Part shown: piece after piece, positions 1-27,842 of the stretch | How the letters are laid out: each line of letters opens with the position of its first letter | How positions within the stretch are numbered: the first letter of the stretch is position 1 | Assembly: GCA_964390305.1 (NCBI GenBank) | Contig: CAYMHT010000001.1 | Location: forward strand, 41 to 64,040 | Direction of reading: 5' to 3' | From: an uncultured Anaerolineales bacterium | GTDB taxonomy: Bacteria > Chloroflexota > Anaerolineae > B4-G1 | DNA length: 64,000 bases | The notes under the pieces: generated by a model | The model's database searches: none | Told to the model about the DNA's origin: nothing | The model's input: only the letters and a program-made list of their open reading frames with translations | Made by a program: the position numbers and the translations under genes

Positions 1-1004
1 GTCTGAGTCGCCTCTCCTCTGCTCGGTCCGCAGGCCGTCCGGGTTGGAGCGTGGGTGGCGCAGTGAGTCTGGTGATGGGCGCTGTGGCTGTCTATTCGCT
101 CGCCGGCGTACTGGCCCCGGCATTCGCTCCCCCGCGCCCCTTGGGCAACACTGAGATCGAGAGTATACCGAATCAGATTGACGTCAAACTCGGGGCCACG
201 GCACAGCTGCTCGGTTATGCAGTCACGCCGACGGAGGTCAAGCCTGGCGACACCGTGGAGGTCGCGCTCTACTGGAAGCCCCTGGCGCGCACCCAGCACG
301 ACCTCGCCGTCTTTGTTCATCTGATGAGTGACGTAGGCGCCATGATCGCCCAGCGCGACACCTATCCTGGCCTGGGCCGGTACCCGACCACGGCGTGGGA
401 CCCCAGGGTCGTGTTCGCCGATATCTACCGAGTGGAGATTCCGAGCACTACCTACGCGCCAGACAGTGGCTACGTGCAGGTGGGCCTTTACCTGCCTGAT
501 GGCCCTCGCCTCGCTACCGACGAGGGACAAGACACGGTACGGCTCGCAAACGTCACGGTGGATCCGCACCCCGGCGCCGTCCCCAATCCCCTGGACATCA
601 ACTTCGGGGACAAAGTCGCATTGAAGGGATATACGCTTTATCCCCGGGTCGCAGGGCCAGGTGATACCATCCAACTCACCCTCTACTGGGAGGCACTGGC
701 GCCGATGGGGCTCGACTATCACGTATTTGCGCACGTCCTCGGCGACGAGAATCAGATCTGGGCCAACAGCGACAGTCTGCTCACGGACGAAGTAGTCTGC
801 AGCAGTCGGTGGAGGCCCGGCACGCTGGTCAAGGAGGTCCGGGAATTGACACTCCTTGAGGCAACGCCGCCGGATTTCTACGATGTCGAGGTGGGACTCT
901 ACATACCAGGTCAAGACCGTTTGGAGATTCTGGCGGAGGACGGTCGTCACCTTGGAAATCGGACCCTCCTAACTACGGTCCGGGTCGTGAACGACCGTGG
1001 GTGA
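1..1004 (+). CDS. 3' part of a GT-C family membrane glycosyltransferase (paralog P1); the 5' end lies beyond the window start. The visible part is a last TM helix plus two copies of the C-terminal repeat module
   Basis: Frame 3 is open from position 3 with no stop. The product shows a hydrophobic helix followed by two ~120-aa repeats with the LYW...FVHL...GLY-xPG motifs, the same module that ends the downstream paralogs. Confidence 0.55.
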   Translation, partial: LSRLSSARSAGRPGWSVGGAVSLVMGAVAVYSLAGVLAPAFAPPRPLGNTEIESIPNQIDVKLGATAQLLGYAVTPTEVKPGDTVEVALYWKPLARTQHDLAVFVHLMSDVGAMIAQRDTYPGLGRYPTTAWDPRVVFADIYRVEIPSTTYAPDSGYVQVGLYLPDGPRLATDEGQDTVRLANVTVDPHPGAVPNPLDINFGDKVALKGYTLYPRVAGPGDTIQLTLYWEALAPMGLDYHVFAHVLGDENQIWANSDSLLTDEVVCSSRWRPGTLVKEVRELTLLEATPPDFYDVEVGLYIPGQDRLEILAEDGRHLGNRTLLTTVRVVNDRG

Positions 1005-3546
1005 ACCTCGATTGCGCCGCAGGTATTGGGGCAGCGCGCTCCTCCTCTTACTGCTATACGTCGGCGTGGCAGTGGGAACGACATATCCGCTCGTAGGTCA
1101 CCTCACAACGCACCTACCCGGACAAACAACGGATACCTTGGTCCACTACTGGAACGGTTGGTGGGTGCGTCAGGCTTTGAGGAACGGTCAATCGCCCTTT
1201 CGCACCTCATATCTGTTCTACCCCCAGGGACTGAGTTTAGTATACCACAACTTCGCATGGCCCAGCATCCTGGGTTGGCTCGCATTGGAGCCCATAGTAG
1301 GAGGCTTTGCCGGCTACAACTTGGTCTTCCTTCTCAGCCTGGCTCTCTGCGGCTGGACAGCCTCTTTACTAGCATACGACCTGACTGGCGACAGACGGGC
1401 TGCGTTCCTCTCCGGTCTGATCTATCAGTGCTGGCCTTTTCGCATGGCCCAGCTGGATCATCCTAATCTGATCAGCACCTACTCCATTCCGTTGTTCCTG
1501 CTGTTCTTGAACCGTACGGTACGCCGCCACCGGTGGCGGAGCGGTGTGTTCGCAGGCGGTTTCCTCGCTTTGGTTGGCTATACCCGATGGCAACTCCTGA
1601 TTCCTGCTTCCATCATTGGGGGAATCTATCTGGCCTTCACCTTGCCTCGCGCTTGGGCTACGCGTCATCAGTGGCTGCCCCCGCTACTGCTCGCGGGGAG
1701 CGTCGCTGCGCTGGCATTGACCCCGCCGGCGATGCTATTGATGAACGAGCAACAGACCAATCCGGCAAGCTTGGTGAAGCAATCAGATGAGGTCGCAATG
1801 CAGACCGACCTGATGGCCTATCTGACCCCCAGCGCTGCCCACCCTATATTTGGCCCCTTCACCGCGACAGCTTATGATCGATACTACAGCAATCGTAGCA
1901 CAGGGCGCCGCTTCCCCGCCTACGTGGGTGTGGCGACACTGGCCTTAGCTTCTCTCGGCATCTGGCGGGCTTCTCGAAAGAGCATCCCCTGGGTGGTCGG
2001 AGCAGTTGTGCTGATCTCGTTGGCCTTGGGGATGGACCTGCGGATCAACGGCAACGTATATCCAGCTCTTCCGATGCCCTATCGCCTAGCAAGCAAGAGC
2101 TTCCTGGTGCGTCTATTGCGCTTTCCCGACCGCTTCAGTCTGTTTGTGGCGCTGCCGATGTCCATGCTGGCCGCGCATGGCACATCTCACGTTCTGCAGG
2201 CCTTTCGCCATGACAGCAAGAGGCTCGCAGCCAGCACGATGTGCCTGCTATGTGGAGCTGTTGTATTCGAATACCTGGCAGTACCCGCGCCCCACAGGGA
2301 TCCCCAGGCGTCAGACTTCTACCGAGAGATAGCTCACGAATCCCAGGAGTTCGCCATACTGAATCTGCCAATCAACTCCCAGAAGTCGAAAGAGTACATG
2401 TTTGCGCAAGTGACCCACCAACACCCGATCCTCCAGGGAAAGTCAGCTCGTTTACCAGAAGGCACGTATACCTATCTCGACACCCGTCCCTTGCTGCGAA
2501 GCCTAAAGCAGTCCGGTGAGATCGATCCAGCGCTTACCGACGTCAGTCGTCAGCTAACCTCCCTTGCGGACGACGACGTGGCCTACATCGTCCTGCACAA
2601 GCAGGAAGTTGAGGCCGATCGCGTGGCCCGCTGGCGTCGTTATCTCTTGACCACCCCTCGCTTCGAAGATCACCTGATTGCTGCTTTCTCTACGTCTCCT
2701 GTAGCAGGGCGGGATTTCCCTCTGGCACAGGAGCTTTTGCCCGGTATCGGGCCCGTGCACATCGTTACCTCGACTGGTTGCCTCGACCCTGGAGGGGTGC
2801 TAGAGGTAGATATTGGGTGGGGCACAGCACGATCTCTGACACAGGACTTCAGCCTGGAGATATCCCTCGCATCGAACGAAGGAACGACTGCAGAGAGTCG
2901 GGTCTATGCTCTGTCTTCGGACTGGCCCACGTCCAACTGGCCGGCGAATGCCCTGGTGTGGGGTTATTATCCTTTCCACGTGAGCACATCGCTACCCCGT
3001 GGCACCTACGCCGTCGAACTGGCCCTGGTCGACGCAGTGACCGCCGAGAAGGTGGGGCACTCGATGCTCGCTGGAGAGGTGAGAGTCCCCCGCACCAGGT
3101 GCGTCTTTCCTGTCCCCCCGGGTGCCACAAGTGTGAACTCGGTATTTGGCGACGCTCTGCGGCTCTTGGGTTACCGGTTGCTCCGCCAGGGGGACGAATT
3201 GGAGATCACTCTCTACTGGCGTTCGGAACAGAGAATGGAGACCGATTACAAGATCTTCGTCCATGTCTTTGAGCCAACCACCAAAGCTCCCGTAGCGCAG
3301 GACGACTCCATGCCCAAGCGGTGGGCCCATCCAACCACATTGTGGGCACCTGGAGAGCGGGTGGCAGACGTCATCCCTGTCTCGCTCAAAGGCGTGCCGC
3401 AAGGAGAATACGGCGTAGCAGTCGGAGTCTATGATCCGCAGACGATGGAACGTCTCCCTGTCGTCGGTGCCGAGAATCGGTTTTATCCCGATGATCGCCT
3501 CATCCTACAACGAGAGACCGTCGTGGTGGAGAATTCCAAGCCATGA
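997..3546 (+). CDS. GT-C family membrane glycosyltransferase (849 aa, paralog P2) with a multi-TM N-terminus and two C-terminal repeat modules
   Basis: Polytopic hydrophobic N-terminus of about 560 aa. The C-terminus has a degenerate and then a canonical repeat (ITLYWRSEQ...YKIFVHVF...GVYDPQTMERLPV). The GTG start overlaps the P1 stop by 8 nt. Confidence 0.7.
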   Translation: MGEPRLRRRYWGSALLLLLLYVGVAVGTTYPLVGHLTTHLPGQTTDTLVHYWNGWWVRQALRNGQSPFRTSYLFYPQGLSLVYHNFAWPSILGWLALEPIVGGFAGYNLVFLLSLALCGWTASLLAYDLTGDRRAAFLSGLIYQCWPFRMAQLDHPNLISTYSIPLFLLFLNRTVRRHRWRSGVFAGGFLALVGYTRWQLLIPASIIGGIYLAFTLPRAWATRHQWLPPLLLAGSVAALALTPPAMLLMNEQQTNPASLVKQSDEVAMQTDLMAYLTPSAAHPIFGPFTATAYDRYYSNRSTGRRFPAYVGVATLALASLGIWRASRKSIPWVVGAVVLISLALGMDLRINGNVYPALPMPYRLASKSFLVRLLRFPDRFSLFVALPMSMLAAHGTSHVLQAFRHDSKRLAASTMCLLCGAVVFEYLAVPAPHRDPQASDFYREIAHESQEFAILNLPINSQKSKEYMFAQVTHQHPILQGKSARLPEGTYTYLDTRPLLRSLKQSGEIDPALTDVSRQLTSLADDDVAYIVLHKQEVEADRVARWRRYLLTTPRFEDHLIAAFSTSPVAGRDFPLAQELLPGIGPVHIVTSTGCLDPGGVLEVDIGWGTARSLTQDFSLEISLASNEGTTAESRVYALSSDWPTSNWPANALVWGYYPFHVSTSLPRGTYAVELALVDAVTAEKVGHSMLAGEVRVPRTRCVFPVPPGATSVNSVFGDALRLLGYRLLRQGDELEITLYWRSEQRMETDYKIFVHVFEPTTKAPVAQDDSMPKRWAHPTTLWAPGERVADVIPVSLKGVPQGEYGVAVGVYDPQTMERLPVVGAENRFYPDDRLILQRETVVVENSKP

Positions 3547-5558
3547 GCAGACAGTGGCAATGGGCCATCCTCACGGGGATACTTCTGCTGGCTGCCGCGA
3601 TGCGCCTCGTGGCGCTAGGCCAGGTACCTCCTGGGTTAGCTCATGATGAAGTCGCCAACTGGCTCATCGCCCAGGATATCCTGAGCGGAAAGCACACGAT
3701 CTACTTCACCGCCGCCTACGGCCACGAACCGCTCTACCAGTACGTGCAGGCGGCCACCGTCGGGCTTTTCGGGGACCACTGGCTGGGGCTGCGCTGGCCC
3801 TCTTTCGCTTTCGGCCTGCTGGGCATTGTAGCGATCTATGCCCTGATGCGACGTCTGTTTGGCGCACCCGTCGCTCTGCTGACTATCACCTGGCTGACCG
3901 TGAGCTTTTGGCCTCTGTTCTACGCTCGGGTCGGCCTACGAGCTATTACGCTGCCTCTCACTGCCGCGCTCTCCGCCTACTTCCTCTGCCATGCCCCCAA
4001 CCAGCCAGCCAGTCCAACAACACACCAAGCCAGTGGTGCCTCAACACGTCAACTTGCCAATGCACTGCTTGCGGGGCTCTTCCTCGGCTTGAGCCTGTAC
4101 ACCTACATGGCGGCTCGTATTCTTCCCTTCATCTTCGTTACGTTCCTCGTGTATTCAATGCTTGTTTCCTCATCTCGTCTTGATGTCCGCTGGTCTCACC
4201 TGCTTGTGCTGTTTCTTGTCGCTCTCCTCGTGTCCATCCCTCTCGTAATCTGGCTGGCGACCCACCCTGGCGCCGAATATCGCATCTCGGAGATCCGAGA
4301 ACCGCTCGACCGTCTACTTGCGGGCGACCCGACGTTGGTCTGGCAGAATCTGATCGCCAACCTCAAGTCCTTTACGATCGCTGGTGATCCTTGGCCCCAT
4401 CAGAATCTGCCCGGGCGTCCGGTTTTCGCCGACCCGATCGGTGCCGTGTTGTTCTACGCCGGCGTCGGCATCGCGCTGTGGCGCTGGCACGATCCACGCT
4501 ACGGCTTTCTGCTCATCTGGCTGATCGGCGCGCTCGGCCCCAGCGTCGCCACCTCTGTCGCCCCTAGCTCTATCCGCAATATCCTCGGGCTGGTCGTCGT
4601 CTTTGCCTTCCCCGCGATCGCGCTCGCCGAAGCAGGCCGCTGGTTCAAAGGCGAGGTGCAAGGTGTAGCGAACAGGATACAGCGCTGGCCCTTCTTTCTT
4701 GTTGCCTCCTGCTTCTTACTTCTCACTCCCTGTCTCCTTCTCACTGGGCGCGACTACTTCGTCCGCTGGCCCCGGAATGAAGACGTCCGCTATTTCTACC
4801 AAACTGACCTGACCGCCGTGGCCCATCGGCTGGACGAACGGTCACCAGGGACGCCCGCTGTCGTGGCAGGACTTTCAGTGCACACGATGGATCGCCCAAC
4901 GCTGCAGCTCACCGCTTCCGAGCGCGTCGATGACGTCCGCCTCTGCGATACCCGCGAGACACTCGTCCTCCCCGCGTCAGCCAGGAATGAAGGACGGCTG
5001 TTTGTGCCTCGCATTGTCCCCTTCGATCCAGATCTCGAGCAGCGGCTCTTGAAGTGGGGAGCGGACCTTGCAACGTATCAGAATGGGGCCTTCATCACCT
5101 ATCGCTTGCCCGATCGTACCTCGCTGGAGCGCAATCTGGAGCTTCTAGCGGATGAGGCTGCTTTGCCCGACGGCTCGGTGGTGGAGCTCCCGGCCTCCTT
5201 CGGCGGCCACCTTGTTTTCCTCGGCTATGAGTGGCTCCAGAGTAATGGCGGCACTCTCAAGCTGCTGACATATTGGCGCGTTGAGGATCCGCCATCCACT
5301 CGGCTCAAAATCTTCGTACATCTGGTGGACGAGACCGGTCACCAAGTTGGTCAACACGACGGCCTGGGCAGCCCCCCGCAGGGATGGGCCCCTGGGGACT
5401 TGGTCGTACAGAAGCACTTTATAGCGTCCTCCGAGCCGGTTGCCCCTGGGCTTTTCAGCCCACAAGTCGGCCTGTATAATCCCTCCTCCGGGTCACGGCT
5501 CTCCGTCGCCGGTTTTGAGCGATTGTCTCTATCACCCGATGAGGCGAAGGCACCCTGA
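3543..5558 (+). CDS. GT39/ArnT-like (PMT family) GT-C glycosyltransferase (671 aa, paralog P3) with one C-terminal repeat module
   Basis: DE motif after TM1 (LAHDEVANW). ArnT/PMT-like loop (TAAYGHEPLYQYVQAATVGLFGDHWLGLRWPSFAFGLLGIVAIYALMRRLFG). C-terminal LLTYWRVED...KIFVHLVDETG...VGLYNPSSG module. ATGA start-stop overlap with P2. Confidence 0.8.
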   Translation: MSRQWQWAILTGILLLAAAMRLVALGQVPPGLAHDEVANWLIAQDILSGKHTIYFTAAYGHEPLYQYVQAATVGLFGDHWLGLRWPSFAFGLLGIVAIYALMRRLFGAPVALLTITWLTVSFWPLFYARVGLRAITLPLTAALSAYFLCHAPNQPASPTTHQASGASTRQLANALLAGLFLGLSLYTYMAARILPFIFVTFLVYSMLVSSSRLDVRWSHLLVLFLVALLVSIPLVIWLATHPGAEYRISEIREPLDRLLAGDPTLVWQNLIANLKSFTIAGDPWPHQNLPGRPVFADPIGAVLFYAGVGIALWRWHDPRYGFLLIWLIGALGPSVATSVAPSSIRNILGLVVVFAFPAIALAEAGRWFKGEVQGVANRIQRWPFFLVASCFLLLTPCLLLTGRDYFVRWPRNEDVRYFYQTDLTAVAHRLDERSPGTPAVVAGLSVHTMDRPTLQLTASERVDDVRLCDTRETLVLPASARNEGRLFVPRIVPFDPDLEQRLLKWGADLATYQNGAFITYRLPDRTSLERNLELLADEAALPDGSVVELPASFGGHLVFLGYEWLQSNGGTLKLLTYWRVEDPPSTRLKIFVHLVDETGHQVGQHDGLGSPPQGWAPGDLVVQKHFIASSEPVAPGLFSPQVGLYNPSSGSRLSVAGFERLSLSPDEAKAP

Positions 5559-5611
5559 GCACGATGGTTCGCATTCGGCCCGATTGATCGAAGTTCTAGA
5601 AGGTGCTTAGG

Positions 5612-7687
5612 ATGGCACAAGACAAACAACAGCGTCACTGGCTGCCCCCGTGGGCCGTCTCTGTCTTCATCTTTCTGTTAGCCTTCTTGCCACGTGCTGT
5701 CTACCCGGTCTCCCGGCCAATGCAGTGGTACACCCGCGCTGTTCGATTTAGCGATGCGCTGCTGGCGCAGGACTGGGCAGAAGCGTATCAGCGCTATCAC
5801 CCTGGCGTGTCTACGATGTGGCTCTCCAGCATCGGCGTGAGGCTCTATGCCTGGCAGAAAGGGCTGTCAACTGATCAGTTGTTGGGCACCGCGCCGACCA
5901 AGCCCGGCGTCCTAAACGACGCGGTCACAGCAGGCGTAATCCCATTGGCTGTCGTCATTGCCCTGTGCATTGGCCTGTCATACGTGCTGCTCAGCCGCAT
6001 CACTGAGCCCAAGGTCGCATTTGCAGGTAGTTGTCTGCTCGCATTGGACCCTTTCTACATCCCCCACAGCAAAGTGCTTCACGTAGATGCCCTGTTGGCG
6101 ACGTTCATGCTCACGAGTGCCCTGTTCTTGCTCAACTTCCTTCGCCATTCCAGGTCGCTCGATCTGATCTTGAGCGGCGCGTTCGCCGGGCTGGCATTTC
6201 TCAGCAAGAGTCCTTCCTGCTTCCTCATCCCCTACGCAGCCCTGGTAGTAGGGACACACAATGTTCTGCCTCATATCAGATCGGGACAAAAGCGATGGAC
6301 GCACCCATTCTGGGAGACAACCCGCGTCATGCTGCTCTGGGGCATGGTTGCCTGTGTGGTCTTTGTCGCGCTCTGGCCAGCAATGTGGGTCGAACCGGTG
6401 AGTACACTGCGCAAGATAGCAGCGAGAGTCCTGTTTCACATTGGGACCGCGCACTACAACCCTGTCTTCTTCGTCGGCGGGGTCACCCACGAAGACCCTG
6501 GCCCACTTTTCTATCTAGCGACTATCGCGTGGAAGACGACCCTGGTCACGCTGCCGATGCTGTGCGCTGCGATCCTCTTCGAGGCTCGTCAACTGCGGCG
6601 AGGTAAGGGAAACGGGATGGTATGGTTGTTCGCAGCATACGCTGCCTTCTTCACAGCCCAAATGTGCTTGAGTGCGCGAAAGGAGCTAGTTTATCTGTTG
6701 CCCGCTTTCCCGGCACTGGACATGCTGGCGGCGCTGGGCGTAGCGCGGACAGCGGATTCGGTGACCCGAGTCCGCCGTTGGCAGAGACTGGATTGGTTGC
6801 CGTCGGCGATAGTAGGCGGAGTGCTCGTGTTGCAGGCGGTCTTGGTGCTGCCGCGTCATCCCTACTACGGTACACTTCACAACCGTCTGCTGGGTGGAAC
6901 GCGGGTGGCGCAGTACATCCTTCCGCTCCAAGATCAAGGAGAGGGACTAGATCTGGCGGGGCAATACCTGAACACCCTACCTCGAGCACAACGTGCCAGG
7001 GCAGGCCTCTATAGACGCAGCGCTTCCATCTTTCGGCGCAACTTCGTGGGTGCAACCAGCAACATAAGCGACCCCCGTGCCAACTACCGGATCTACTACG
7101 TTAACCAGGTAATGCGTCGTCTCGGGAGCGAGGCGTGGGAGGAGATGTGGCATCTCGACCGGCAGGAGGAGCCTCTGTGGACGGTGACCTTTGGGGGTGT
7201 CACCTACGTCTGGGTCTATGGCGCGCCACCGGCAAAGCCAGCCGCTGGCGGGCCCGAGTACGAAGTGAACTGCCAATTTGGTGAGCATATCCAGCTGGAC
7301 CGCGTGCGCATCAGCACCGAGGTGCTCGCTCCGGGCGACAAACTGACCGTCGTGCCAGTCTGGATGTCGAACGGCGACATCGAGAGAAGCTACAAGGTCT
7401 TCTGCCACATCCTGTCCCAGACCGGCGAGTTGGCCGCACAGCGAGACGATTTTCCCCTCGCAGGCGTCCGCCAGACGCCGAGTTGGCGGCCCGGCGAACT
7501 CATCGAGGACAGCTACGAGATAAAGCTAGAGGACGATATGCCCCCGGGCGAGTATCAGGTCTCACTAGGGATGTATGATCCAGAGAGTATGCACCGCCTA
7601 CCCGTCTATGACGCGGCTGGCAGGCAGTTGGCTGACGAGCGAGTTGTTCTGACATCCGTGCGCGTTGAACAACGGACACAGGACTGA
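5612..7687 (+). CDS. GT-C family polytopic membrane glycosyltransferase (paralog P4) with one C-terminal repeat module
   Basis: Long multi-TM protein. C-terminus VVPVWMSNG...YKVFCHILSQTG...GMYDPESMHRLPV. ATG at 5612 is preferred over the GTG at 5603 because of the upstream GAAGGTG. Confidence 0.65.
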   Translation: MAQDKQQRHWLPPWAVSVFIFLLAFLPRAVYPVSRPMQWYTRAVRFSDALLAQDWAEAYQRYHPGVSTMWLSSIGVRLYAWQKGLSTDQLLGTAPTKPGVLNDAVTAGVIPLAVVIALCIGLSYVLLSRITEPKVAFAGSCLLALDPFYIPHSKVLHVDALLATFMLTSALFLLNFLRHSRSLDLILSGAFAGLAFLSKSPSCFLIPYAALVVGTHNVLPHIRSGQKRWTHPFWETTRVMLLWGMVACVVFVALWPAMWVEPVSTLRKIAARVLFHIGTAHYNPVFFVGGVTHEDPGPLFYLATIAWKTTLVTLPMLCAAILFEARQLRRGKGNGMVWLFAAYAAFFTAQMCLSARKELVYLLPAFPALDMLAALGVARTADSVTRVRRWQRLDWLPSAIVGGVLVLQAVLVLPRHPYYGTLHNRLLGGTRVAQYILPLQDQGEGLDLAGQYLNTLPRAQRARAGLYRRSASIFRRNFVGATSNISDPRANYRIYYVNQVMRRLGSEAWEEMWHLDRQEEPLWTVTFGGVTYVWVYGAPPAKPAAGGPEYEVNCQFGEHIQLDRVRISTEVLAPGDKLTVVPVWMSNGDIERSYKVFCHILSQTGELAAQRDDFPLAGVRQTPSWRPGELIEDSYEIKLEDDMPPGEYQVSLGMYDPESMHRLPVYDAAGRQLADERVVLTSVRVEQRTQD

Positions 7688-7711
7688 CAGCAAGGCAGCC
7701 CTACGGTTTCC

Positions 7712-9352
7712 ATGAAGCATTGTATGGCTCCGCGGTTCCTCATCGTCCTCCTGTTGCTGATCTCCTTCGGCCTGTGCCTCACCAGTGCGATACAAAAATC
7801 GCCAACAATGGATGAGCAAAACCACATTGCCCGGGGAGCTGCCTATCTGGGTACCGGCGATCCACGCCTGAACATCGAGCATCCGCCGGTGGTCAACGTC
7901 CTCAGCGCGCTGCCCTCCCACCTCCTGCTCGATCTCCGTCTGCCACTCGACGAGTGGTGGGAGGTTGCGGAATGGTACCACTTCGCCGACAACTTCTTGT
8001 GGCATGCCAACCAGGATCCCGACGCCATCGTCTTCCTCTCCCGCCTGCCCATCATCGGACTGGGGCTGTTGCTGACCTCCCTTGTCTTCCGTTGGGCGCG
8101 CAGGCGCTTCGGTGCGTGGGGTGGACTGCTTGCGGCTGCCTTCTGTGGGCTGGATCCCAATATCCTGGCCCATGAGCGGCTCTCGACGACAGACCTGGGT
8201 GCCACCTTCTTCATCCTCCTGGCTGCTTATGCGTTCTGGCGGCTCTCGCGGCAACTCTCTCCACGGCGCGTCCTGGCTGCCGGTTTGGCACTGGGGCTCG
8301 CTTTCGCCGCCAAGCTCTCGGCACTGGTCTTCGGTCCCATCCTGGGCCTCACGTTCCTCCTGGATGGGATGCGCCACAGCTCACACCGCGCGCGTCACCT
8401 GCTGCGCCGTCTGGCCCTCGGCGCGGCGGTGGCGACGCTGGCGCTACTGGTGATTTGGGGCAGCTACCTTTTCCAGGTAGGACCGTTCGAAGGCATCAGC
8501 GTCCCAGCGCCAGCACCGCCTTACCTCGAGGGTGTGCAAGCCATACTAAGTCTCGCCGCCGGGGGTCGACCGGCTTACCTGCTGGGCCGGATCAGCACCG
8601 AAGGCTGGTGGTACTACTTCCCGGTCGCTTTCGCGGTCAAGACGCCCCTGCCCACTCTGCTCGGCCTGCTCGTCGCAAGCCTAGTGATGATTCTGCAACC
8701 GAGCCGCGACGACCTGTTCGTCTGGTTTCCGCCGCTGGCTTTCTTCCTAATCCTCATGACCGCTCGTCTCAACCTGGGGTATCGGCACTTATTGCCCATC
8801 CTGCCTTTCCTCGCCATCCATGTTGGTCGCCTTGCTCAACCCTCTGCCTTTCGCTTTCTGGCGCATCAGTCCTCACAGGTTGACTTATGCCGCTTTGTAA
8901 GTATCGTCCTCGCCGCCTGGCTGACAGCGAGCACCGTCTCGATCTATCCTCACTTCCTCGCCTACTTCAGTCCCCTCGGTGGCGGCCCAGAGAACGGCTG
9001 GCGCATCCTCGTCGATTCCAACATCGATTGGGGCCAGGATCTGAAAGAGCTGCGGAAGTGGATGGTGCACGGAAACGTTGAGCGGGTCAAGCTGAGCTGG
9101 TTTGGGAGCGCTCCGCCGGAGGCTTACGGCATAGAGCACCAGTTGCTGGTCGGCGTCCCTCATGGGTTCACGATGTGGCAAGATCCGCCCTTCAATCCTG
9201 ATCAACCAGAGCCGGGGGTTTACGCAATAAGCGTGACCAATCTGGTAGGAGCAGCGCTTCCCGACCCAGACCTGTACGCGTGGTTCCGGAGGCATCCGCC
9301 CGACGATCGAGTCGGCTACACCATCTTCATCTATCGAGTCGAAGCGCCATGA
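7712..9352 (+). CDS. GT39/PMT_2-like GT-C membrane glycosyltransferase (546 aa, paralog P5); the only member of the family without the C-terminal repeat module
   Basis: DE motif in the first loop (PTMDEQNHIARG). About 11 predicted TM segments. Ends ...GYTIFIYRVEAP without the repeat motif. Confidence 0.7.
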   Translation: MKHCMAPRFLIVLLLLISFGLCLTSAIQKSPTMDEQNHIARGAAYLGTGDPRLNIEHPPVVNVLSALPSHLLLDLRLPLDEWWEVAEWYHFADNFLWHANQDPDAIVFLSRLPIIGLGLLLTSLVFRWARRRFGAWGGLLAAAFCGLDPNILAHERLSTTDLGATFFILLAAYAFWRLSRQLSPRRVLAAGLALGLAFAAKLSALVFGPILGLTFLLDGMRHSSHRARHLLRRLALGAAVATLALLVIWGSYLFQVGPFEGISVPAPAPPYLEGVQAILSLAAGGRPAYLLGRISTEGWWYYFPVAFAVKTPLPTLLGLLVASLVMILQPSRDDLFVWFPPLAFFLILMTARLNLGYRHLLPILPFLAIHVGRLAQPSAFRFLAHQSSQVDLCRFVSIVLAAWLTASTVSIYPHFLAYFSPLGGGPENGWRILVDSNIDWGQDLKELRKWMVHGNVERVKLSWFGSAPPEAYGIEHQLLVGVPHGFTMWQDPPFNPDQPEPGVYAISVTNLVGAALPDPDLYAWFRRHPPDDRVGYTIFIYRVEAP

Positions 9353-11418
9353 CTCCACCCACCCGACCGGAGACAGCCCCTGGTCCCCACCTCGAGCTTT
9401 GGCTGATGGTCGCGACCCTTGTCGTCGCGACTTTCTTCCGCTTCTATGCGCCCTGCACCATGCCGCCGGGGCCGTCGCACGACGAGCTCCGGATGATGGA
9501 TCTCGGCGAGATGATCGTCGAGGGAGAACGACCTATCCACTGGACGATAAGCTACAGCGCCGAGCCGCTCTTTATGTATCTGCTGGCGCTCGTTATGCCA
9601 GTATGGGGCTTCACCCCATTCGGGGCGCGCCTCGTGACGCGCTTCGCGGGTCTGCTGCTTATCCCCGTAGCGCACCGTCTGACGCGTCGTCTCTTTGGGC
9701 GGCGTATCGCGCTCTTCACCAGCGGTGTGCTCGCGGTGACCTGGTGGCCGTTATTCTTCAGCCGGGTGGCCCTCCGCGGTATCACGCTGCCACTGACCTT
9801 CACCGGCGCCATCATCTGCCTCTGGCGAGGTCTGGCTTTGGACGAGGACAGGACCCTCAGAACTCGGACTACTGCACACTGGGGATGGCTGGTTGGAGGC
9901 GGAGCGTTGACGGGGCTCACCTGGTATACGTTCACCGCTGCTCGAGGCCTAGCCATTCTGCTGCCGATGCTGTTGGTCTACCTGGGATTGCTGGGAGCCA
10001 TCCCCCTCGGCCAGCTTGGGCGCATCGCTCTCGTGACGCTAGTGATGGCATCCCTGGTCGCTGCCCCCTTCATCTACGAGATGCAGGTCCACCCAGGCGC
10101 ACCCGAGACACGCCTAGATCAGTTGGGGGGCGTCGTTGACCAACTGCTGGCCGGAAACCTCGTTCCCTTTGCGAAGCAGGCTCTGAATACAGCGGGCCTG
10201 TTCTTGGTGACAGGTGATCCAAACTGGCGCTATAACATCGCAGAGCGCCCGGTGTTTGGCCCACTGCTCGGAGCCATAGCCATCCTGGGTCTTGCGCTGA
10301 GCGTCGCCCACTGGCGGCAACCGCGCCACGCCCTCCTGATTCTGTGGCTGCTCCTGGGGGTTGCTCCTTCCGTCCTTACCCCCGAAGCGCCAAGCTTCGT
10401 GCGCGGAATAGGCACCCTGCCCGTGGTTGCGGTCTTCCCTGCAATTGGCGCTGTGGCCATCTGCGACTGGGTCGCGTTGCGCACGGGTCGAAGCCTTGCC
10501 AGGCTCGGTGCCGTCCTGGTCGTGGTCCTCATACCGCTCAACGGCCTGGTCACGTTCCGCGATTCGTTCTTCGTGTGGACAGCTCGACCAGAGGTGCGCG
10601 AGATCTATCAAGCTTCTCTTACCGAGGCGTTCCGTGACCTCAATCACAGCAACCTGGAGGGGCCGCTCTGGATCTCTGAACCCTTCCCTGATGACCGTCA
10701 CCTGCTGCTCGCCAAGCGGGTCCTCCATCGGAAGGCTATCGAACTGCGCTGGTTCGACGCCGATAGAGCGCTGATCCTGCCCCCTGCCAGTGGTGTCCGA
10801 CGCTATCTGCTCGCAGATTTCGCGGAACCCGACCAGAGGCTCTTTGCACGATGGATGGGCGACGCGACTGAGCTGCTCGAGCGGCACACGGATTCGCCCG
10901 CGTCAAAGACTTCAACGTACAGGCTTTACCAGGCTGTAGGAGGCCCTTGGGTAGAGGAGGAGCTCTCACAGATTGAAGCGCAGTCAACGGCGTCGCTCGA
11001 CCTTGAGACAGAGCGCCCTGTGACGCTGCCGTCTCGTTTCGAAGACGTAGCGACGATGCTGGGGTATGAACTGGTGGACGATAGGTTGGCGCCTGAGGAC
11101 CAGGTTCATGTCAGCCTCTACTGGCGTGTCCACAAGCCCGTCTATGAGCCAATCGCAAGCTTCGTCCACCTCCTCGACCAAGAGAATAACGTCGTCGGTC
11201 AATACGATGGCTTTGACGTCCCCCCTTGGCATTGGGAACCTGGCGCCGTCATCGCCCAGGTCTATCGCTTCACAATTGACGAGCACACTCGAGAGGGACC
11301 TCACTGGCTGGAAGCCGGTCTCTACCATTCGCAGACGATGGAGCGGCTGATGGTTGTCGACGAAGCAGGCTTCGTGCTTGGCGATCGGTTGGTGCTTCAA
11401 CGTGTCACGGTGCGATAG
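9349..11418 (+). CDS. GT39/ArnT-like GT-C glycosyltransferase (paralog P6) with one C-terminal repeat module
   Basis: PSHDELRMM DE motif. ArnT/PMT-like loop (ISYSAEPLFMYLLALVMPVWGFTPFGARLVTRFAGLL...RRLFG). C-terminal VSLYWRVHKP...SFVHLLDQEN...AGLYHSQTMERL. The ATG at 9349 overlaps the P5 stop (ATGA); the ORF-track start at 9280 would overlap P5 by 70 nt. Confidence 0.75.
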   Translation: MTPPTRPETAPGPHLELWLMVATLVVATFFRFYAPCTMPPGPSHDELRMMDLGEMIVEGERPIHWTISYSAEPLFMYLLALVMPVWGFTPFGARLVTRFAGLLLIPVAHRLTRRLFGRRIALFTSGVLAVTWWPLFFSRVALRGITLPLTFTGAIICLWRGLALDEDRTLRTRTTAHWGWLVGGGALTGLTWYTFTAARGLAILLPMLLVYLGLLGAIPLGQLGRIALVTLVMASLVAAPFIYEMQVHPGAPETRLDQLGGVVDQLLAGNLVPFAKQALNTAGLFLVTGDPNWRYNIAERPVFGPLLGAIAILGLALSVAHWRQPRHALLILWLLLGVAPSVLTPEAPSFVRGIGTLPVVAVFPAIGAVAICDWVALRTGRSLARLGAVLVVVLIPLNGLVTFRDSFFVWTARPEVREIYQASLTEAFRDLNHSNLEGPLWISEPFPDDRHLLLAKRVLHRKAIELRWFDADRALILPPASGVRRYLLADFAEPDQRLFARWMGDATELLERHTDSPASKTSTYRLYQAVGGPWVEEELSQIEAQSTASLDLETERPVTLPSRFEDVATMLGYELVDDRLAPEDQVHVSLYWRVHKPVYEPIASFVHLLDQENNVVGQYDGFDVPPWHWEPGAVIAQVYRFTIDEHTREGPHWLEAGLYHSQTMERLMVVDEAGFVLGDRLVLQRVTVR

Positions 11419-11595
11419 CTGTTCGGCCACGAAGCGCTGCTTGACCCTTGCCACTGTAGCGGTCATGCCGGGCAAAACCAGGGACCCCACTGGCCTATCC
11501 TTAACAAAACCAGGCCGTCTCATGGTCAGAGTGGCCGTCATCAGCTGCTCCTCAACCTCGAGTGACATGGATCGATCTCAGCCCAGACACCGACG

Positions 11596-11624
11596 TTGAC
11601 AAGAGGTCCATCCCATAGTAGAAT
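11596..11624 (+). promoter_or_regulatory. sigma70-type promoter: TTGACA, 17-nt spacer, TAGAAT
   Basis: TTGACA at 11596-11601 and TAGAAT at 11619-11624 with an exact 17-nt spacer, about 120 nt upstream of the ATG at 11743. Confidence 0.5.
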
Positions 11625-11742
11625 CGCGTCACTTGACCCCGTCACAGCTTGCCTCCTGCAAGCCAAGACGCTTCTGATAGAGCCACACCAGCCTCGTAGC
11701 ACCATGGCCGGCGAATGGTGCTCACGGGAAAGGAATACAGAG

Positions 11743-13203
11743 ATGAAACCGAGTACGACATCAATCAGGCGTGCCACGTGGATGTTGATGAGCGGTGCCT
11801 GTGGGCTCGCGCTCGTCGTAGGCTTGCTTCTGTTCGTTCGACTCCCGGTCCGAGCGAAGCCAGCGGCAGACCCGATGGGCGCAGGAGTGACTGTAGAGAA
11901 ATACGCAAACACGGACTTCGCAGACGCTGGAGACACCCTTACCTACACCATCAGCATCGGGAAGCTCGGAGCCGACGCAACGTCCGCCTGGCTCACGGAC
12001 GAGTTGCCCACCCAACTCACCTACGTCGCCGACAGCCTCACGGCTGTCGACAGCTTCGGCGACCACATTGGAACCTTCGGGGCAAGCAATGGCGTGATCA
12101 CCTGGCACGCACCCAGCCTGGCCGGCAACGTGTGGATCACCTTTAGCGCCCAGATTTCGTCAGAGACAGAGGCGGATATCGTCAATGTGGCTGAAGTCAC
12201 CGGGACCGGCGAGTTGATCACAGACTCCTGGAAGACACGCCTCGGTGGGGGCTTGATCTACATGCCCCTTATCGCGAGGCGGTGGCCACCTATACCTTAT
12301 GCCCCGATCCTGCATGAAATATCGAACCCAGACCGGCAGAGAGACTACACTGTCAACTGGGACTATGATTACGCCGAGCCCCCGGTGTTCTCGTACACGT
12401 TGCAGGAGGCGAGGAACGAGGGCTTCACCCAAGATGTGACTGACTTCCAGATCACCGCCCCCTCGTCATCGAAGAGCTTCGCCAATAAGGATGGCGGGAC
12501 GTATTACTACCGGGTGCGGGGCCACAATACATATGGACCAGGCCCGTGGAGTAACGTGGTACGGACGACAGTCTTCTACTACTTCGATGACTTCAGCGAC
12601 TACCAGAGTGGGTGGCCGCGAGAGTGGACCAGAACGCGCGGAGCTCTGTATCGGGTGCGTCCTTATGAACACCCCGCATGCCCAGGGTCCGACTGCAAGT
12701 ACGACGGAGGAGACGGCTATCTCATCGCACGCCGAAATGACGGTGAACCCTTTGCGCGGTTCGGCCCGAACGTAAAGGTGCCAGGAGCGGATTACGAGAT
12801 TACGCTAGACGCGCGCTGGTTCTCGTCCAACTTCTGGAACACCTACCAGATCTTCTTTGGATCCGACAAGTCGTTCGAGAAGTACTACGCTGTTCAGGTT
12901 CGCTACAGCTACGAAGGCTACTGTGCCTATTCCATTGTCAAGGACCGCGACGACAATTACCTGGAGGGGTGGTCGCACGCCACGGACATCAAGTGCCAGG
13001 CAGGGGATGACGCATCCCGGGATCACTGGAAGATCCGTCGCAAAGAGGGCAAAATCACTGTGTGGGTTAACAACGTGGCGCTAGGCACGTGGACCGACTG
13101 GTCTTATGGTGCTGACCGCTATTTCGGCGTGGGGGCCACGACCTACGAGTTCACCCCCTCTAAACCAGAGTTCGACAACTTCAGAGTCAGGCTGATAGAC
13201 TAG
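11743..13203 (+). CDS. Secreted or membrane-anchored surface protein with a signal/anchor, a DUF11-like repeat domain, an FN3-like domain and a C-terminal concanavalin/LamG-like (DUF1080-type) lectin or hydrolase-like domain
   Basis: N-terminus MKPSTTSIRRATWMLMSGACGLALVVGLLLF is a signal/anchor. DUF11-like segment (TVEKYANTDFADAGDTLTYTISI...VADSL). FN3-like segment (GTYYYRVRGHNTYGPGPWSNVVRTTV). C-terminus ...KITVWVNNVALGT...FDNFRVRLID resembles the DUF1080/LamG ending. GGAAAGGAA RBS before the ATG at 11743. The longer ORF start at 11596 lies inside the promoter. Confidence 0.65.
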   Translation: MKPSTTSIRRATWMLMSGACGLALVVGLLLFVRLPVRAKPAADPMGAGVTVEKYANTDFADAGDTLTYTISIGKLGADATSAWLTDELPTQLTYVADSLTAVDSFGDHIGTFGASNGVITWHAPSLAGNVWITFSAQISSETEADIVNVAEVTGTGELITDSWKTRLGGGLIYMPLIARRWPPIPYAPILHEISNPDRQRDYTVNWDYDYAEPPVFSYTLQEARNEGFTQDVTDFQITAPSSSKSFANKDGGTYYYRVRGHNTYGPGPWSNVVRTTVFYYFDDFSDYQSGWPREWTRTRGALYRVRPYEHPACPGSDCKYDGGDGYLIARRNDGEPFARFGPNVKVPGADYEITLDARWFSSNFWNTYQIFFGSDKSFEKYYAVQVRYSYEGYCAYSIVKDRDDNYLEGWSHATDIKCQAGDDASRDHWKIRRKEGKITVWVNNVALGTWTDWSYGADRYFGVGATTYEFTPSKPEFDNFRVRLID

Positions 13204-13225
13204 CGTGGGTTTCATTGTCATAGAC

Positions 13226-13252
13226 GGGGAGGCGCCGGGGCCTCCCCTTCTG
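13226..13252 (+). terminator. Possible intrinsic terminator hairpin after the surface-protein gene
   Basis: GGGGAGGC (13226-33), 6-nt loop, GCCTCCCC (13240-47), followed by TTCTG; the T-tract is weak. Confidence 0.3.
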
Positions 13253-13317
13253 CGTGATGTACGCCAGATGACAAGCCGAAGCCCCGTGCTGCCAAGTCCC
13301 GTCCCCTGGGCTCTCGC

Positions 13318-25040: not shown

Positions 25041-26432
25041 GTGCAAAGCAACACAGGACAGATCAGCCGCTCGAGCAGTATCGTTGAGAGATTATTCACC
25101 GCAGGCCTGGTCATACTCTTTGTCGTGATCTCCGCCGCGGCGGGGGTGTTCGTCTTCGATCAGGTGCGACGATATATAGCTGCCTCCGACTCCCCACCTC
25201 CCTTCATCCCTGGCGGGGGCAGCACCGAGTCGGGCACGCCGACCCCAGACCTGACGAGCCCAGACCTGGTCTGGCAAGGGAAAGAGCGCGTCAATATACT
25301 CGTCCTGGGCATTGACCAGCGTCCGGGGGAAGAAGGATACTTCCGTACCGATACGATGCTGGTCTTGACCCTCGATCCAGTCACCAAGAGCGGAGGAATG
25401 CTGTCCATCCCTCGCGACCTCTGGGTCCCAATCCCGGGATACGGCGTCGAGCGTATCAACGCCGCTCACGTTTTCGGGCAGAGGGACAACTACCCGGGCG
25501 GAGGGCCGGCGCTTGCGGCTAAGACTGTGGAGAACAACCTTGGCGTCCACATTCACCACTACGTGCGTGTCGATTTCAACGCTTTCGTTGAGCTTGTAGA
25601 TCAGATTGGCGGGATTGAGATCTACGTCGAAGAAGAGATCAACGATCCCAAATACCCATCTCAGGATCCCGCTGACCCATATGGCTATGATCCGTTGCAC
25701 ATCGAGGTCGGTGAGCACCATTTCGACGGCGAGATGGCGCTCAGGTACGCCCGCACACGGCGCACCTCAGGGGCCGATTTTGATCGGGCCAGACGCCAGC
25801 AACAAGTCCTCACCGCGATCTTCAAGAAGGTGACGCGGCTGGACATGCTGCCGACGCTGATAGCGCAGGCCCCCCAGGTATGGCGAACCGTACAGGATTC
25901 AGTGGAGACCGACCTGAGGCTCGATCAGATCATCGCTCTCGCCCGGCTGGCCAGCCAGGTGGATCTCGACGACGTTCGGTTCGGCGTCGTCGATGAGAAG
26001 TACACGGTACCCCACGAGACAGAGGATGGGGCGAAGGTGTTGATCCTGCTGCGAGACAGGATGCGCGAGCTGCGCGATGAGATCTTTACCTCCGAAGAGT
26101 CCGCCCCGGACGACGAGGCTGGTCCAGAATCTCGACTCGATGAGGAAGCTGCCACCATCGAGGTGTTGAACGGAACCCTCACACAGGGACTGGCTGCCGA
26201 CGTCACCGAGCGCCTCCGCGAGAGCAATCTAGACGTCGCGCATACTGACAATGCTGACCGGCAGGACGTCGAGGAATCGCTGGTTGTCGCCCACACCGAC
26301 AAGACGTACACGGCTCATTACATCGCTCGTCTTCTGGACCTTCCCGAGTCAGCAGTGGTACAAGGATCTGCGCCAGCAGCTGAATACGATATCTCGCTGA
26401 TTCTCGGGGCCGATTACGCACCCCCACAATAA
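25041..26432 (+). CDS. LytR-CpsA-Psr (LCP) family phosphotransferase with an N-terminal TM anchor and a C-terminal LytR_C-like domain
   Basis: LCP core (VNILVLGIDQRPGEEGYFRTDTMLVLTLDP...LSIPRDLWVPIPGYGVERINAAH) with an N-terminal TM helix. Confidence 0.85.
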   Translation: MQSNTGQISRSSSIVERLFTAGLVILFVVISAAAGVFVFDQVRRYIAASDSPPPFIPGGGSTESGTPTPDLTSPDLVWQGKERVNILVLGIDQRPGEEGYFRTDTMLVLTLDPVTKSGGMLSIPRDLWVPIPGYGVERINAAHVFGQRDNYPGGGPALAAKTVENNLGVHIHHYVRVDFNAFVELVDQIGGIEIYVEEEINDPKYPSQDPADPYGYDPLHIEVGEHHFDGEMALRYARTRRTSGADFDRARRQQQVLTAIFKKVTRLDMLPTLIAQAPQVWRTVQDSVETDLRLDQIIALARLASQVDLDDVRFGVVDEKYTVPHETEDGAKVLILLRDRMRELRDEIFTSEESAPDDEAGPESRLDEEAATIEVLNGTLTQGLAADVTERLRESNLDVAHTDNADRQDVEESLVVAHTDKTYTAHYIARLLDLPESAVVQGSAPAAEYDISLILGADYAPPQ

Positions 26433-26561
26433 GCCGGGGATGGAGGATCACCAGGCGTTGGCCGGACAGCAAAGGTTCAGTTGATGAGACGTGCCAACTC
26501 GTCAATCGGCATAGTCGCAACGCGGAGCGACTCCTGAACGCTTCCTTGGGAGGATAGCGGC

Positions 26562-27842
26562 GTGGAGAAGTTTTTGATCGAAGGGGGACATCCCATCTCC
26601 GGGACGCTGGCCCCCAGTGGAAACAAGAACGCGGCTCTTCCGCTACTTGCGGCCTGCCTGTTGACAGATGAACCGATCACATTGCGGAATATGCCCGACA
26701 TCGGTGACATACGCACCATGGCCGAGATCCTCGCCGATATCGGCGTTGATGTCGAACAGCCCGGTCCCCACACGTGGCGAGTCCATGCTCAAGACATCCG
26801 TACGAACGAACTGAGCCCCGACCTCTTCGGCCGCATCCGGGGCTCAATCACGCTGGCCGGTCCGTTGCTCGCACGCACCGGCGGCGTTCACATGCCCTCG
26901 CCCGGCGGGGACGTCATCGGACGTCGCCGCGTCGATACACACTTCCTGGCCTTAGGTGCGTTGGGTGCGGAGCTCGGCAGCGGTCTTTCCTTCCACCTGG
27001 AAGGCCGGCAGCTTCACGGTACCGATATTCTCTTGGATGAGGCCAGCGTCACCGGCACCGAGAACGCCATCATGGCATCTGTGCTTGCAGAGGGCACAAC
27101 GGTGATCCGCAACGCGGCGTGCGAGCCCCACGTACAGGATCTGTGCCACATGCTTTGTCGGTTCGGCGCACAGATAGCGGGTATCGGCTCCAATACCCTT
27201 TCGATCCACGGCGTGGATCGTTTGGACGGGGGCGAGTTCACCGTTGGGCCAGATTATATGGAGGTGGGAAGCTACATCGCCCTGGCCGCCGTGACGGGAG
27301 GCGAGTTGTTGATCAAGGGGGCCGCTCCGGAACATCTGCGGATGATCGGCCTGGTCTTTGATCGTTTAGGGGTTCAGTTCGAGGCTCAAGGTGACGATGT
27401 CTTCGTGCCCGCAGAGCAGCCATTGACCGTCACACCGGACCTCGGTGGTGCGATTCCAACCATCAAGGACGCTCCCTGGCCGGCTTTTCCCGCTGACTTG
27501 ATGAGCATCGCCATCGTGTTAGCGTCTCAAGCTAAAGGAACCGTCCTGGTTCACGAGAAGATGTTTGAGAGCCGCCTCTACTTCGTGGATCAGTTGATCG
27601 CTATGGGAGCCCGTATCATCCTCTGCGACCCGCATCGATGCGTGGTGCAAGGGCCTTCTCCTCTGCACGGCGAGGAGGTCAGCAGTCCAGACATCCGTGC
27701 TGGCATGGCTCTGCTTATCGCAGCCCTCTGCGCCAGAGGCCAGAGCCTGATCCGAAACATCCGTCAGATTGACCGCGGATATGAGCGGATCGAGGAGAAA
27801 CTGTCCTCCCTGGGTGCTGTGGTCAAGCGCATCTGTGTCTGA
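26562..27842 (+). CDS. murA: UDP-N-acetylglucosamine 1-carboxyvinyltransferase
   Basis: Typical MurA sequence across its length ([23 protein letters not shown]...). Confidence 0.95.

Follow-up and report, generated by a model that had tools for sequence, protein, structure and literature searches.

What is the role of a predicted exported protein whose gene stands between an array of GT-C glycosyltransferase genes and a gene for a PF03706-family membrane protein? The question was raised by a locus in a 64,000-nucleotide (nt) stretch of DNA from an uncultured Anaerolineales bacterium of the Chloroflexota (GenBank assembly GCA_964390305.1, contig CAYMHT010000001.1), the whole of which is called the window below. 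A preliminary description of the window had proposed that this gene, which was read as encoding a protein with DUF11, FN3, and lectin-like domains, might specify the substrate of the adjacent transferases or a partner that binds or remodels their glycan. Our results showed that the gene, separately transcribed and predicted to encode an exported surface protein, is real. The protein is of a kind already known among surface proteins, and the promoter and neighborhood of its gene are unusually well conserved. As to its role, we tentatively favor, with a confidence somewhat short of even, a presumably abundant, exported surface protein without enzymatic activity that acts as the glycan-binding partner of the neighboring envelope-glycan machinery.

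A separately transcribed gene with a conserved promoter

The coding sequence and the signals around it were located as follows.
11596..11624, plus strand: sigma-70-type promoter, with the -35 box TTGACA at 11596-11601, a 17-nt spacer, and the -10 box TAGAAT at 11619-11624
11631..11742, plus strand: predicted 5' leader of about 112-115 nt, counted from an inferred transcription start
11743..13203, plus strand: coding sequence, 486 amino acids (aa) and stop, from ATG 11743 to TAG 13201-13203
13226..13256, plus strand: intrinsic-terminator-like hairpin, GGGGAGGC-gccggg-GCCTCCCC at 13226-13247, then TTCTGCGTG

The open reading frame (ORF) listed for this region, 11596-13203, opened at TTG 11596, which was rejected as a start codon since this TTG is part of the -35 box. 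The in-frame ATG at 11704 was also rejected, having neither a Shine-Dalgarno sequence nor homolog support. The Met at 11743 was the point at which the N-termini of the homologs aligned, and a Shine-Dalgarno-like GGGAAAGGA was found at 11726-11734, 8 nt 5' of this ATG. Minus-strand ORFs across the gene, such as 11541-11936 and 12160-12432, were taken as spurious high-GC open frames. There was no sign of horizontal transfer, the GC content being 58% in the gene and 60-62% in the flanks. The 122 homologs of the 486-aa protein came without exception from Chloroflexota metagenome-assembled genomes or metagenomes, and the related sequences from the assembled Chloroflexota genomes were mostly from Anaerolineae. 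Two sets of loci were compared: 44 genome loci recovered with an alignment of the protein (14 closer sequences), and 12 metagenome loci recovered with the last upstream GT-C protein (GTC5) as an independent anchor.

The promoter matched the consensus at 11 of 12 positions, and the end of the -10 box was 118 nt from the ATG at 11743, in line with the near-consensus TTGACA-17-TAGAAT promoter that the preliminary description had placed about 120 nt upstream of the gene. Four sites with the pattern TTGACA-N17-TANAAT and at most one mismatch were found in the window, compared with 0.13 expected from shuffles. In each of the 15 orthologous loci that contain the stretch from the GT-C stop codon to the family gene (the window, L001-L004, and L045-L054), an exact TTGACA-N17-TA(G/N)AAT was present there, and the intergenic DNA flanking the promoter had diverged and did not align. 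In L017, a distant locus, the same promoter pattern also stood 5' of the family gene. To our knowledge, no Chloroflexota promoter has been defined experimentally, and the promoter assignment therefore rests on consensus and conservation. The strong promoter of its own that had been claimed for the gene was found in the form of this conserved near-consensus promoter, from which high expression is predicted. A second perfect TTGACA-17-TAGAAT was located at 32707-32735 on the plus strand, with a divergent one-mismatch site 100 nt away at 32577-32605 on the minus strand, near the ORF 32677-33498.

The two hairpins previously noted in the leader were present as strings, GCTTGC/GCAAGC at 11647-11663 and GCACCAT/ATGGTGC at 11699-11721, but they folded at chance level and were not conserved. 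The folding of the leader was no better than that of shuffled sequences (z -1.3 and -0.9). The leaders of the orthologous loci were 84-115 nt long and unrelated in sequence, with folding z from -1.5 to +1.0, and those of L001-L004 had neither sequence nor significant structure in common with each other. Because the leaders differ in sequence and fold with z near chance, the hairpins do not represent a conserved element. No Rfam match was found in the leader, and at E<=1 only a chance microRNA match inside the coding sequence was returned. A regulatory RNA was rejected on the basis of Rfam, the folding energy relative to shuffles, and the non-conservation of the leader in the four orthologous loci.

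The GC-rich terminator hairpin lies 23 nt 3' of the stop codon, within the interval covered by the preliminary description (to 13252), where it was not mentioned. A simple terminator scan overlooked it because its T-run is weak. In all 10 other orthologous loci tested, a GGGAGGC-type hairpin with a clearer T-run followed the stop codon (11 of 11 including the window). The stem itself was near-identical (GGGGAGGCC...GGCCTCCCC) in the window, L001-L004, L045, L046, L049, L051, and L052 despite the diverged intergenic DNA, a conservation that appears to exceed the needs of a terminator. The gap between the last GT-C gene and this gene is 325 nt, and the GT-C genes overlap one another. With a conserved promoter and a conserved terminator, the gene is therefore read as an insulated single-gene transcription unit.

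Domains of the protein and their exchange

The predicted protein is divided into five parts, all on the plus strand.
11743..11853, plus strand: predicted signal peptide, aa 1-37, made up of a basic n-region and an h-region about 20 residues long and ending at a V-R-A site, with K-P as the next two residues
11872..12243, plus strand: DUF11/CLIPPER Ig-like domain, aa 44-167
12244..12303, plus strand: conserved linker, aa 168-187, GGGLIYMPLIARRWPPIPYAP
12304..12573, plus strand: FN3 domain, aa 188-277, a beta-sandwich in the AlphaFold2 (AF2) model with a predicted local distance difference test score (pLDDT) of 91-96
12574..13200, plus strand: C-terminal concanavalin-like (galectin/LamG/DUF1080-like) beta-sandwich, aa 278-486

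Confidence was high throughout the models, with three exceptions: the signal peptide, the linker, and a single loop within the C-terminal domain. The signal peptide was assigned by inspection: residues 9-10 are basic, the h-region spans about 12-32, and K38 comes next after V35-R36-A37. AF2 placed a helix at aa 9-30, and a [V/A]-x-A motif 5-7 residues past the h-region was kept in about 20 homologs. The protein is thus probably exported by a Sec-type route and cleaved after Val-Arg-Ala37, and the segment fits the long type of signal peptide of single-membrane bacteria; the long h-region could instead serve as an uncleaved anchor. A lipoprotein was rejected since Cys20 falls inside the h-region without a lipobox around it and is not kept in homologs. 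Tat export was rejected as well, since homologs do not keep the RR pair and show no consistent twin-arginine motif.

The DUF11 domain reported earlier was confirmed above the curated cut-offs of both Pfam and TIGR01451. PF01345 matched aa 50-155 (E 8e-8, 33 bits with a cut-off of 24.6), TIGR01451 scored 42.2 bits with a cut-off of 24, and the AF2 pLDDT of the domain was above 90. Foldseek with the full-length model returned 9ifr at a target-normalized template modeling (TM) score (TMt) of 0.76, the aligned query region being assumed to be the DUF11 domain; full-length matches mix domains and are hence little informative alone. The search of the domain with phmmer against PDB sequences gave no match. 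In a recent survey, DUF11 was renamed CLIPPER and described as a stalk element of surface adhesins, and the structure PDB 9IFR was solved, which has an isopeptide bond between Lys715 and Asn806 with Asp748 as catalyst (bioRxiv 10.1101/2025.04.25.650565). The Lys-Asn pair occurs in many, not all, CLIPPER members. In our family, K53, D86, and N148 were kept in all 23-24 DUF11-bearing rows of the alignment, with spacings of 33 and 95 residues compared with 33 and 91 for K715, D748, and N806 of 9IFR. An isopeptide bond between Lys53 and Asn148 with Asp86 as catalyst is therefore likely, because the triad is conserved and its spacing is close to that of 9IFR.

The linker between the DUF11 and FN3 domains carried a motif that every one of the 27 family genes had and that was absent from the other 2750 ORFs of the collected loci. 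Its YMPLIARR half had low pLDDT, and its PPIPYAP half aligned with the Pro-rich start of FN3 domains. The pattern exclusive to the family, Y(L/F/M)P(L/I)(I/V)xx(R/K)(W/Y)PP, is at 12256-12294 of the window (aa 172-184). A shorter form, YLPL(I/V)xR, stood directly 5' of the same lectin-like domain in other architectures and also ended two large ORFs; the loci with the shorter form were L020 1055-2884, L027 9275-10555, L031 1-3372, and L038 628-1914. In Chloroflexota, this motif could serve for processing, docking, or sorting.

The FN3-like domain of the preliminary description was supported at the level of the family profile and the fold, but not by a Pfam match of the query itself. At the gathering score, fn3 (PF00041) did not match the query, for which only Pur_ac_phosph_N (E 0.077) and Ig_J_second (E 0.12) were returned. 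The family profile matched the FN3 domains of titin (E 1e-19 over the whole chain, best single domain 0.0014), Dscam (4e-7), DCC (2e-5), and gp130, and weak PF00041 matches were seen in 10 of 22 family members. Tandem FN3 structures were returned by the full-length Foldseek search, and the relative P0016 is named an FN3 protein by NCBI.

Likewise, the concanavalin/LamG-like assignment of the C-terminal domain, which ends in KPEFDNFRVRLID as had been claimed, stood at the fold and superfamily level and fell below the curated thresholds. When modeled alone, the domain, which contains four cysteines (313, 318, 394, and 418), gave a pLDDT of 83 and a predicted TM score (pTM) of 0.84. Foldseek with this model returned TM scores of 0.56-0.64 to 1oq1, the lectin domain of 3zr5, 4b1m (CBM66), and 4jqt; the matches named were Bacillus subtilis YesU (galectin-like, 1oq1), the lectin domain of galactocerebrosidase (GALC), galectins, and the DUF1080 protein BT3469. 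The match to 4jqt had a TM score of 0.56 and an E-value of 6.5e-6, and YesU (1oq1), the GALC lectin domain, and CBM66 scored equally well or better. Against PDB sequences, the family profile found the DUF1080 structures 4jqt (E 0.0017) and 3imm (E 0.017). The profile search for DUF1080 or LamG that the preliminary description had suggested gave no Pfam or NCBIfam match for the C-terminal domain of the query (none to PF06439 at E<=10); among 28 relatives, PF06439 matched weakly in 19 (best E 6.6e-6) and Laminin_G_3 in 8. With the DUF1080 or 3-keto-disaccharide hydrolase family (PF06439; 4jqt, 3imm) and the LamG-like concanavalin superfamily, the domain shared the beta-sandwich and the strand order, together with the DUF1080-like motifs FDDFSxxxSGW at the start, WNHWKI...VNG in mid-domain, and FDNF at the end, and genuine stand-alone DUF1080 genes adjoined the family in distant loci. 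It differed in that the query and most relatives were below the Pfam gathering score, in a cysteine-containing insertion (aa ~300-325) specific to the subfamily, and in that no catalytic residues were assignable in this protein. The model thus places the domain within the concanavalin-like superfamily near DUF1080, at the superfamily level only. Of the domain assignments put to hidden Markov model searches, therefore, DUF11 was significant, and FN3 and the C-terminal domain were seen only with family profiles and folds. A catalytic strand of the GH16 type (E-x-D-x-x-E) was rejected since it was not conserved on inspection of the alignment (YEITLDARW in the query, YEIEVD in relatives). The C-terminal domain family comprised 3873 cluster representatives at E<=1e-3, mostly at the C-termini of varied proteins and largely without Pfam coverage. 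No further copies of the FN3 or C-terminal modules were found within the window.

Identity to relatives varied with the domain. P0001, the closest homolog overall, was 80% identical in the DUF11 domain, 92% in FN3, and 49% in the C-terminal domain. For P0016, which has an unrelated N-terminal half, the values were 16% (unrelated), 47%, and 71%, and for P0018 they were 72%, 63%, and 29%. The lectin-like end has been exchanged between lineages separately from the remainder of the protein, a behavior common among ligand-binding modules. At the P0016 locus, the DUF11 stalk was replaced by other domains and the PF03706/GT-C neighborhood was kept. The sole lineage with a different C-terminal subtype, P0025/P0026 (L059/L058), had no GTC5 ortholog at either locus and a different adjacent GT-C, and this single case hints that the C-terminal subtype and the adjacent GT-C may change together. 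The relatives were 450-960 aa long with a variable number of stalk domains, and up to three DUF11 stretches were detected.

Neighboring genes and their conservation

The following features of the window surround the gene or resemble its neighbors.
51..11418, plus strand: PMT_2-type GT-C array with PF13231 matches, which starts in the window with the 3' part of a gene (51-1004) and continues with five that are complete
997-3546, 3543-5558, 5603-7687, 7712-9352, and 9280/9349-11418, plus strand: the complete GT-C genes, Pfam PF13231
13318..14280, plus strand: flippase-like membrane protein, PF03706 LPG_synthase_TM / TIGR00374, the most constant neighbor of the family
43037-45820, 45938-48310, 48315-49799, 52390-53589, and 53637-54452: second envelope-glycan cluster

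The gene had been described as lying directly downstream of the GT-C array, and this was correct for an array of five complete PMT_2 genes and the tail of a sixth. The ORF 51-1004 had no Pfam match of its own; it was taken as the C-terminal third of the sixth gene because homologous full-length ORFs of about 730-820 aa in L001, L013, L045, and L052 carry PMT_2. The array would thus have at least six GT-C paralogs and extend past the left edge of the window. Overlaps of a few bases, ATGA at 3543-3546 and 8 nt at 997-1004, suggest that the GT-C genes are translationally coupled. The GTG listed as the start of GTC5, at 9280, probably lies too far upstream, as GTC5 is conserved from about residue 39 of the listed ORF onward; starting at ATG 9349, the gene would overlap the preceding stop codon (9350-9352) in a further ATGA. 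The PF03706 gene is followed by genes for a SpoU RNA methyltransferase and two GT4 glycosyltransferases.

In the close genome loci L001-L004, the order of GT-C array, family gene, PF03706, and SpoU was kept. In the reciprocal test from GTC5, the family gene was directly 3' of the ortholog in 9 of 9 metagenome loci with enough downstream DNA, and PF03706 then followed in 5 of 7. Close synteny proves little alone, because the unrelated SpoU was also preserved. A distant set was more telling: in its 17 loci, with family genes at 23-35% identity, SpoU was found in none, PF03706 within about 5 kb in 8 (L007, L009-L011, L013-L015, and L019), a GT-C within 10 kb in 8, and one or the other in 11. On a rough estimate that assumes a few PF03706 copies per genome, such proximity of PF03706 would occur by chance in about 2% of loci, compared with the 8 of 17 observed. 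PF03706 was adjacent or nearby in L001-L004, L045, L046, L049-L051, and L057 and upstream in L059, a rearranged locus with the order PF03706, PMT_2 (809 aa), family gene, and SpoU. The gene order varied among the distant loci, where tandem family paralogs were common and where, in one locus, a YfhO-type GT-C adjoined the family gene. Absence of the gene from homologous GT-C loci, named beforehand as the observation that would speak against the proposal, was not seen in the nine GTC5-anchored or the four close loci, and the distant loci that kept PF03706 or a GT-C were the 11 mentioned.

Other features were observed in these loci and in the window. In L007, L008, L010-L016, and L018, a MiaB-like radical SAM gene and a pair of tandem genes for stand-alone proteins, each about 210 aa long, were located 5' of the family gene (for example L013 5522-8706 and L010 6542-9165); in the tandem pairs scanned, one protein was above the PF06439 cut-off and the other had no Pfam match. 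L010 and L011 had three tandem family paralogs. In the window, genes for an LCP (LytR-CpsA-Psr) protein, an EPSP_synthase-family (MurA-like) protein, and MurJ were found at 25041-29715, 12-16 kb downstream, the LCP enzyme being a candidate for coupling a polymer to peptidoglycan. The second envelope-glycan cluster contained two PMT_2 GT-C genes, Wzy_C (O-antigen ligase/polymerase-like), GT4, and an ABC-2 permease.

Proposed glycan binding and its alternatives

In the reading that we tentatively favor, the Sec signal peptide would direct export and be cut after Val-Arg-Ala37. The mature protein would then be a short rod, in which an isopeptide-locked CLIPPER/DUF11 domain is followed by the hydrophobic-basic linker and FN3, and which carries the C-terminal concanavalin-like lectin-fold domain. 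Separate transcription would insulate the gene from the coupled GT-C genes, as for a structural protein made in excess of enzymes. The GT-C enzymes would assemble a glycan on the membrane's outer face from lipid-linked sugars supplied via the flippase-like protein; the lectin-like domain would bind this glycan and thereby retain at the cell surface a protein with no other anchor, and the protein may also present or organize the polymer. No LPXTG, SLH, OmpA-like domain, lipobox, or C-terminal transmembrane segment was seen in the protein sequence. If the signal peptide is cleaved, no recognizable anchor is left, and a glycan-binding domain would supply one. There are precedents for such anchoring: SLH domains bind the secondary cell wall polymer (SCWP), CWB2 binds polysaccharide II (PSII), and GW binds lipoteichoic acid (LTA). 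The proteins of the SLH-SCWP, CWB2-PSII, and GW-LTA pairs resemble ours in the proposed principle, being exported, without a covalent anchor, and encoded beside polymer genes, whereas the binding folds are unrelated and the likeness is an analogy only. The binding of GW to LTA is also described in PMC4944223.

The rod could instead be the dedicated substrate on which the adjacent GT-Cs build an O-linked glycan outside the membrane from lipid-linked sugars. The conserved GT-C/PF03706 neighborhood speaks for such an acceptor in the same way as for binding. In addition, the protein is predicted to be exported, GT-C enzymes act at the membrane's outer face, the GT-Cs belong to PF13231/PF02366, families that include protein O-mannosyltransferases, and the predicted separate, strong expression would suit a structural glycoprotein. 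Some positions were Ser or Thr in at least 90% of the 14 closer relatives, for instance T471 and S473 in FTPSKPEF. However, N-X-S/T sequons were absent from the protein, as were Ser/Thr/Pro-rich or disordered tracts, the richest window of 15 residues containing 7 Ser/Thr/Pro and the Ser+Thr content being an ordinary 15%, although other acceptor types are possible. Protein O-mannosylation needs no six or more paralogous GT-Cs, the match to the NCBIfam protein O-mannosyltransferase was negligible (15 bits with a cut-off of 800), and the stalk that would bear the glycan was replaced by unrelated domains in loci that kept the position. By analogy with mycobacterial arabinan and mannan assembly and with three-component systems (PMC11127046), an array of at least six GT-C paralogs looks more like a machinery for extracytoplasmic polysaccharide assembly than for protein O-mannosylation. 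Four indirect lines, namely the absent acceptor features, the number of GT-Cs, the mosaicism, and the absence of an anchor, lean to binding, which appears to fit better and to be more likely than the slightly disfavored acceptor role; taken by itself, the acceptor role is unlikely. A more elaborate form of it, an undescribed Chloroflexota protein-glycosylation cassette in which a CLIPPER-FN3-lectin acceptor, with the YLPLIxRRWPP linker as a recognition or processing site, receives a complex glycan from GT-C paralogs that a PF03706-type flippase feeds, is improbable. The stalk-and-tip build, with its variable stalk of 450-960-aa relatives, would also suit a surface protein or adhesin that acts independently of the glycosylation genes, with a lectin-like tip for an external ligand (a substrate polysaccharide, a neighboring cell, or a surface) and a place in the locus that reflects shared envelope regulation or inheritance. 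The diversification of the C-terminal domain would suit varied external ligands, the domain occurs in many other architectures, 6 of the 17 distant loci had no GT-C or PF03706 neighbor, and close synteny retains SpoU too. Yet the linkage to PF03706 outlasted that to SpoU at 23-35% identity as well as the rearrangement of gene order, its frequency was far from the roughly estimated chance level, and there is no cell-wall anchor to hold an adhesin, so we give this explanation a low probability. The remaining explanation, that the DUF1080-like domain is a hydrolase, lyase, or hydratase acting on an envelope glycan at a height set by the stalk, is the least probable of all. It draws on the weak PF06439 matches, a family with characterized enzymes among its members, on the fold matches to the hydratase 8v31, GH16, and GH43, on the stand-alone DUF1080 proteins above the Pfam threshold beside family genes in ten distant loci, and on the near-invariant acidic residues at domain positions 7 and 203 (Asp) and 194 (Glu), that is, aa 282, 478, and 469. 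Against an enzyme, no family threshold was reached, no GH16-type E-x-D-x-x-E strand was conserved, the best structural matches were non-catalytic lectin or carbohydrate-binding module domains, and the strong separate expression that is predicted suits a structural protein better.

Several observations also weigh against glycan binding as the favored role. A protein with a lectin fold need not function as a lectin, as the superfamily to which the model points includes hydrolases and a hydratase (8v31), and the C-terminal domain scored below every curated family threshold. The signal peptide was called by inspection, and glycan binding, the expression level, and the surface location are predictions from the sequence. 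Part of the conservation among close relatives, which includes the unrelated SpoU, is inheritance, and the six distant loci mentioned had neither GT-C nor PF03706 within the available DNA. The eight GT-C genes in 64 kb weaken the argument from GT-C proximity, and PF03706 is the better marker. The donor pathway appears incomplete, because a scan confined to large ORFs of the window revealed only GT4 genes and no GT2 polyprenyl-phosphate sugar synthase.

The protein was compared with known systems. Like the CLIPPER stalks of fibrillar adhesins (9IFR), it has a significant Pfam match, predicted export, the triad spacing, and an Ig-like stalk followed by a putative binding domain. It has a single CLIPPER domain instead of a long tandem array, its binding-type domain is C-terminal and DUF1080-like, and no recognized anchoring or sorting domain was found; the available part of the CLIPPER survey does not describe a GT-C/flippase-like context of this kind. 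Fibrillar adhesins combine tandem stalk repeats, an adhesive domain, and an anchor, whereas here a single DUF11, a single FN3, and no anchor were found. With one stalk repeat and no anchor, the protein is therefore not a typical fibrillar adhesin. GhlA of Litorilinea aerophila, a protein of 6596 aa with 49 DUF11 domains, forms three-stranded surface filaments resembling grappling hooks (PMC13319060). It shares with our protein the Chloroflexota origin, DUF11 as a surface-exposed building block, and an N-terminal hydrophobic segment, whereas the present protein has 486 aa, one DUF11, and an FN3 and lectin-like end, and the two were compared at the DUF11 domain alone. Three-component extracytoplasmic glycosylation consists of a polyprenyl-phosphate sugar synthase, a flippase, and a GT-C (PMC11127046), as in the glycosylation of LTA by CsbB/GtcA/YfhO (PMC5836110), and a GT-C enzyme of Citrobacter has a carbohydrate-binding module for the acceptor glycan (PMC11127046). 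The GT-Cs, the putative lipid flippase-type protein, and the YfhO-type GT-C of one distant locus recall these systems. The differences are that the flippase candidate is PF03706 and not MATE or GtrA, that no GT2 was among the ORFs scanned, that there are at least six GT-C paralogs rather than one, and that the systems described so far include no separate lectin-like protein that is secreted. In the literature, no description was found of the family or of its link to a GT-C locus, the closest paper being that on the giant DUF11 filament protein of Litorilinea.

Given its small size and, apart from the exceptions named, its confident domain models, the protein lends itself to tests of binding and glycosylation with recombinant material. 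If it proves to be only an ordinary surface protein, the gain would be a better annotation of the DUF11 family and of a large, mostly unannotated family of DUF1080-like domains. The cell envelope of the Chloroflexota is poorly understood, and most lineages are uncultured. A compact conserved cassette of GT-Cs, a flippase-like gene, and an exported lectin-fold protein provides an entry point to the surface glycan that these bacteria make and to how proteins stay on the wall without known anchors.

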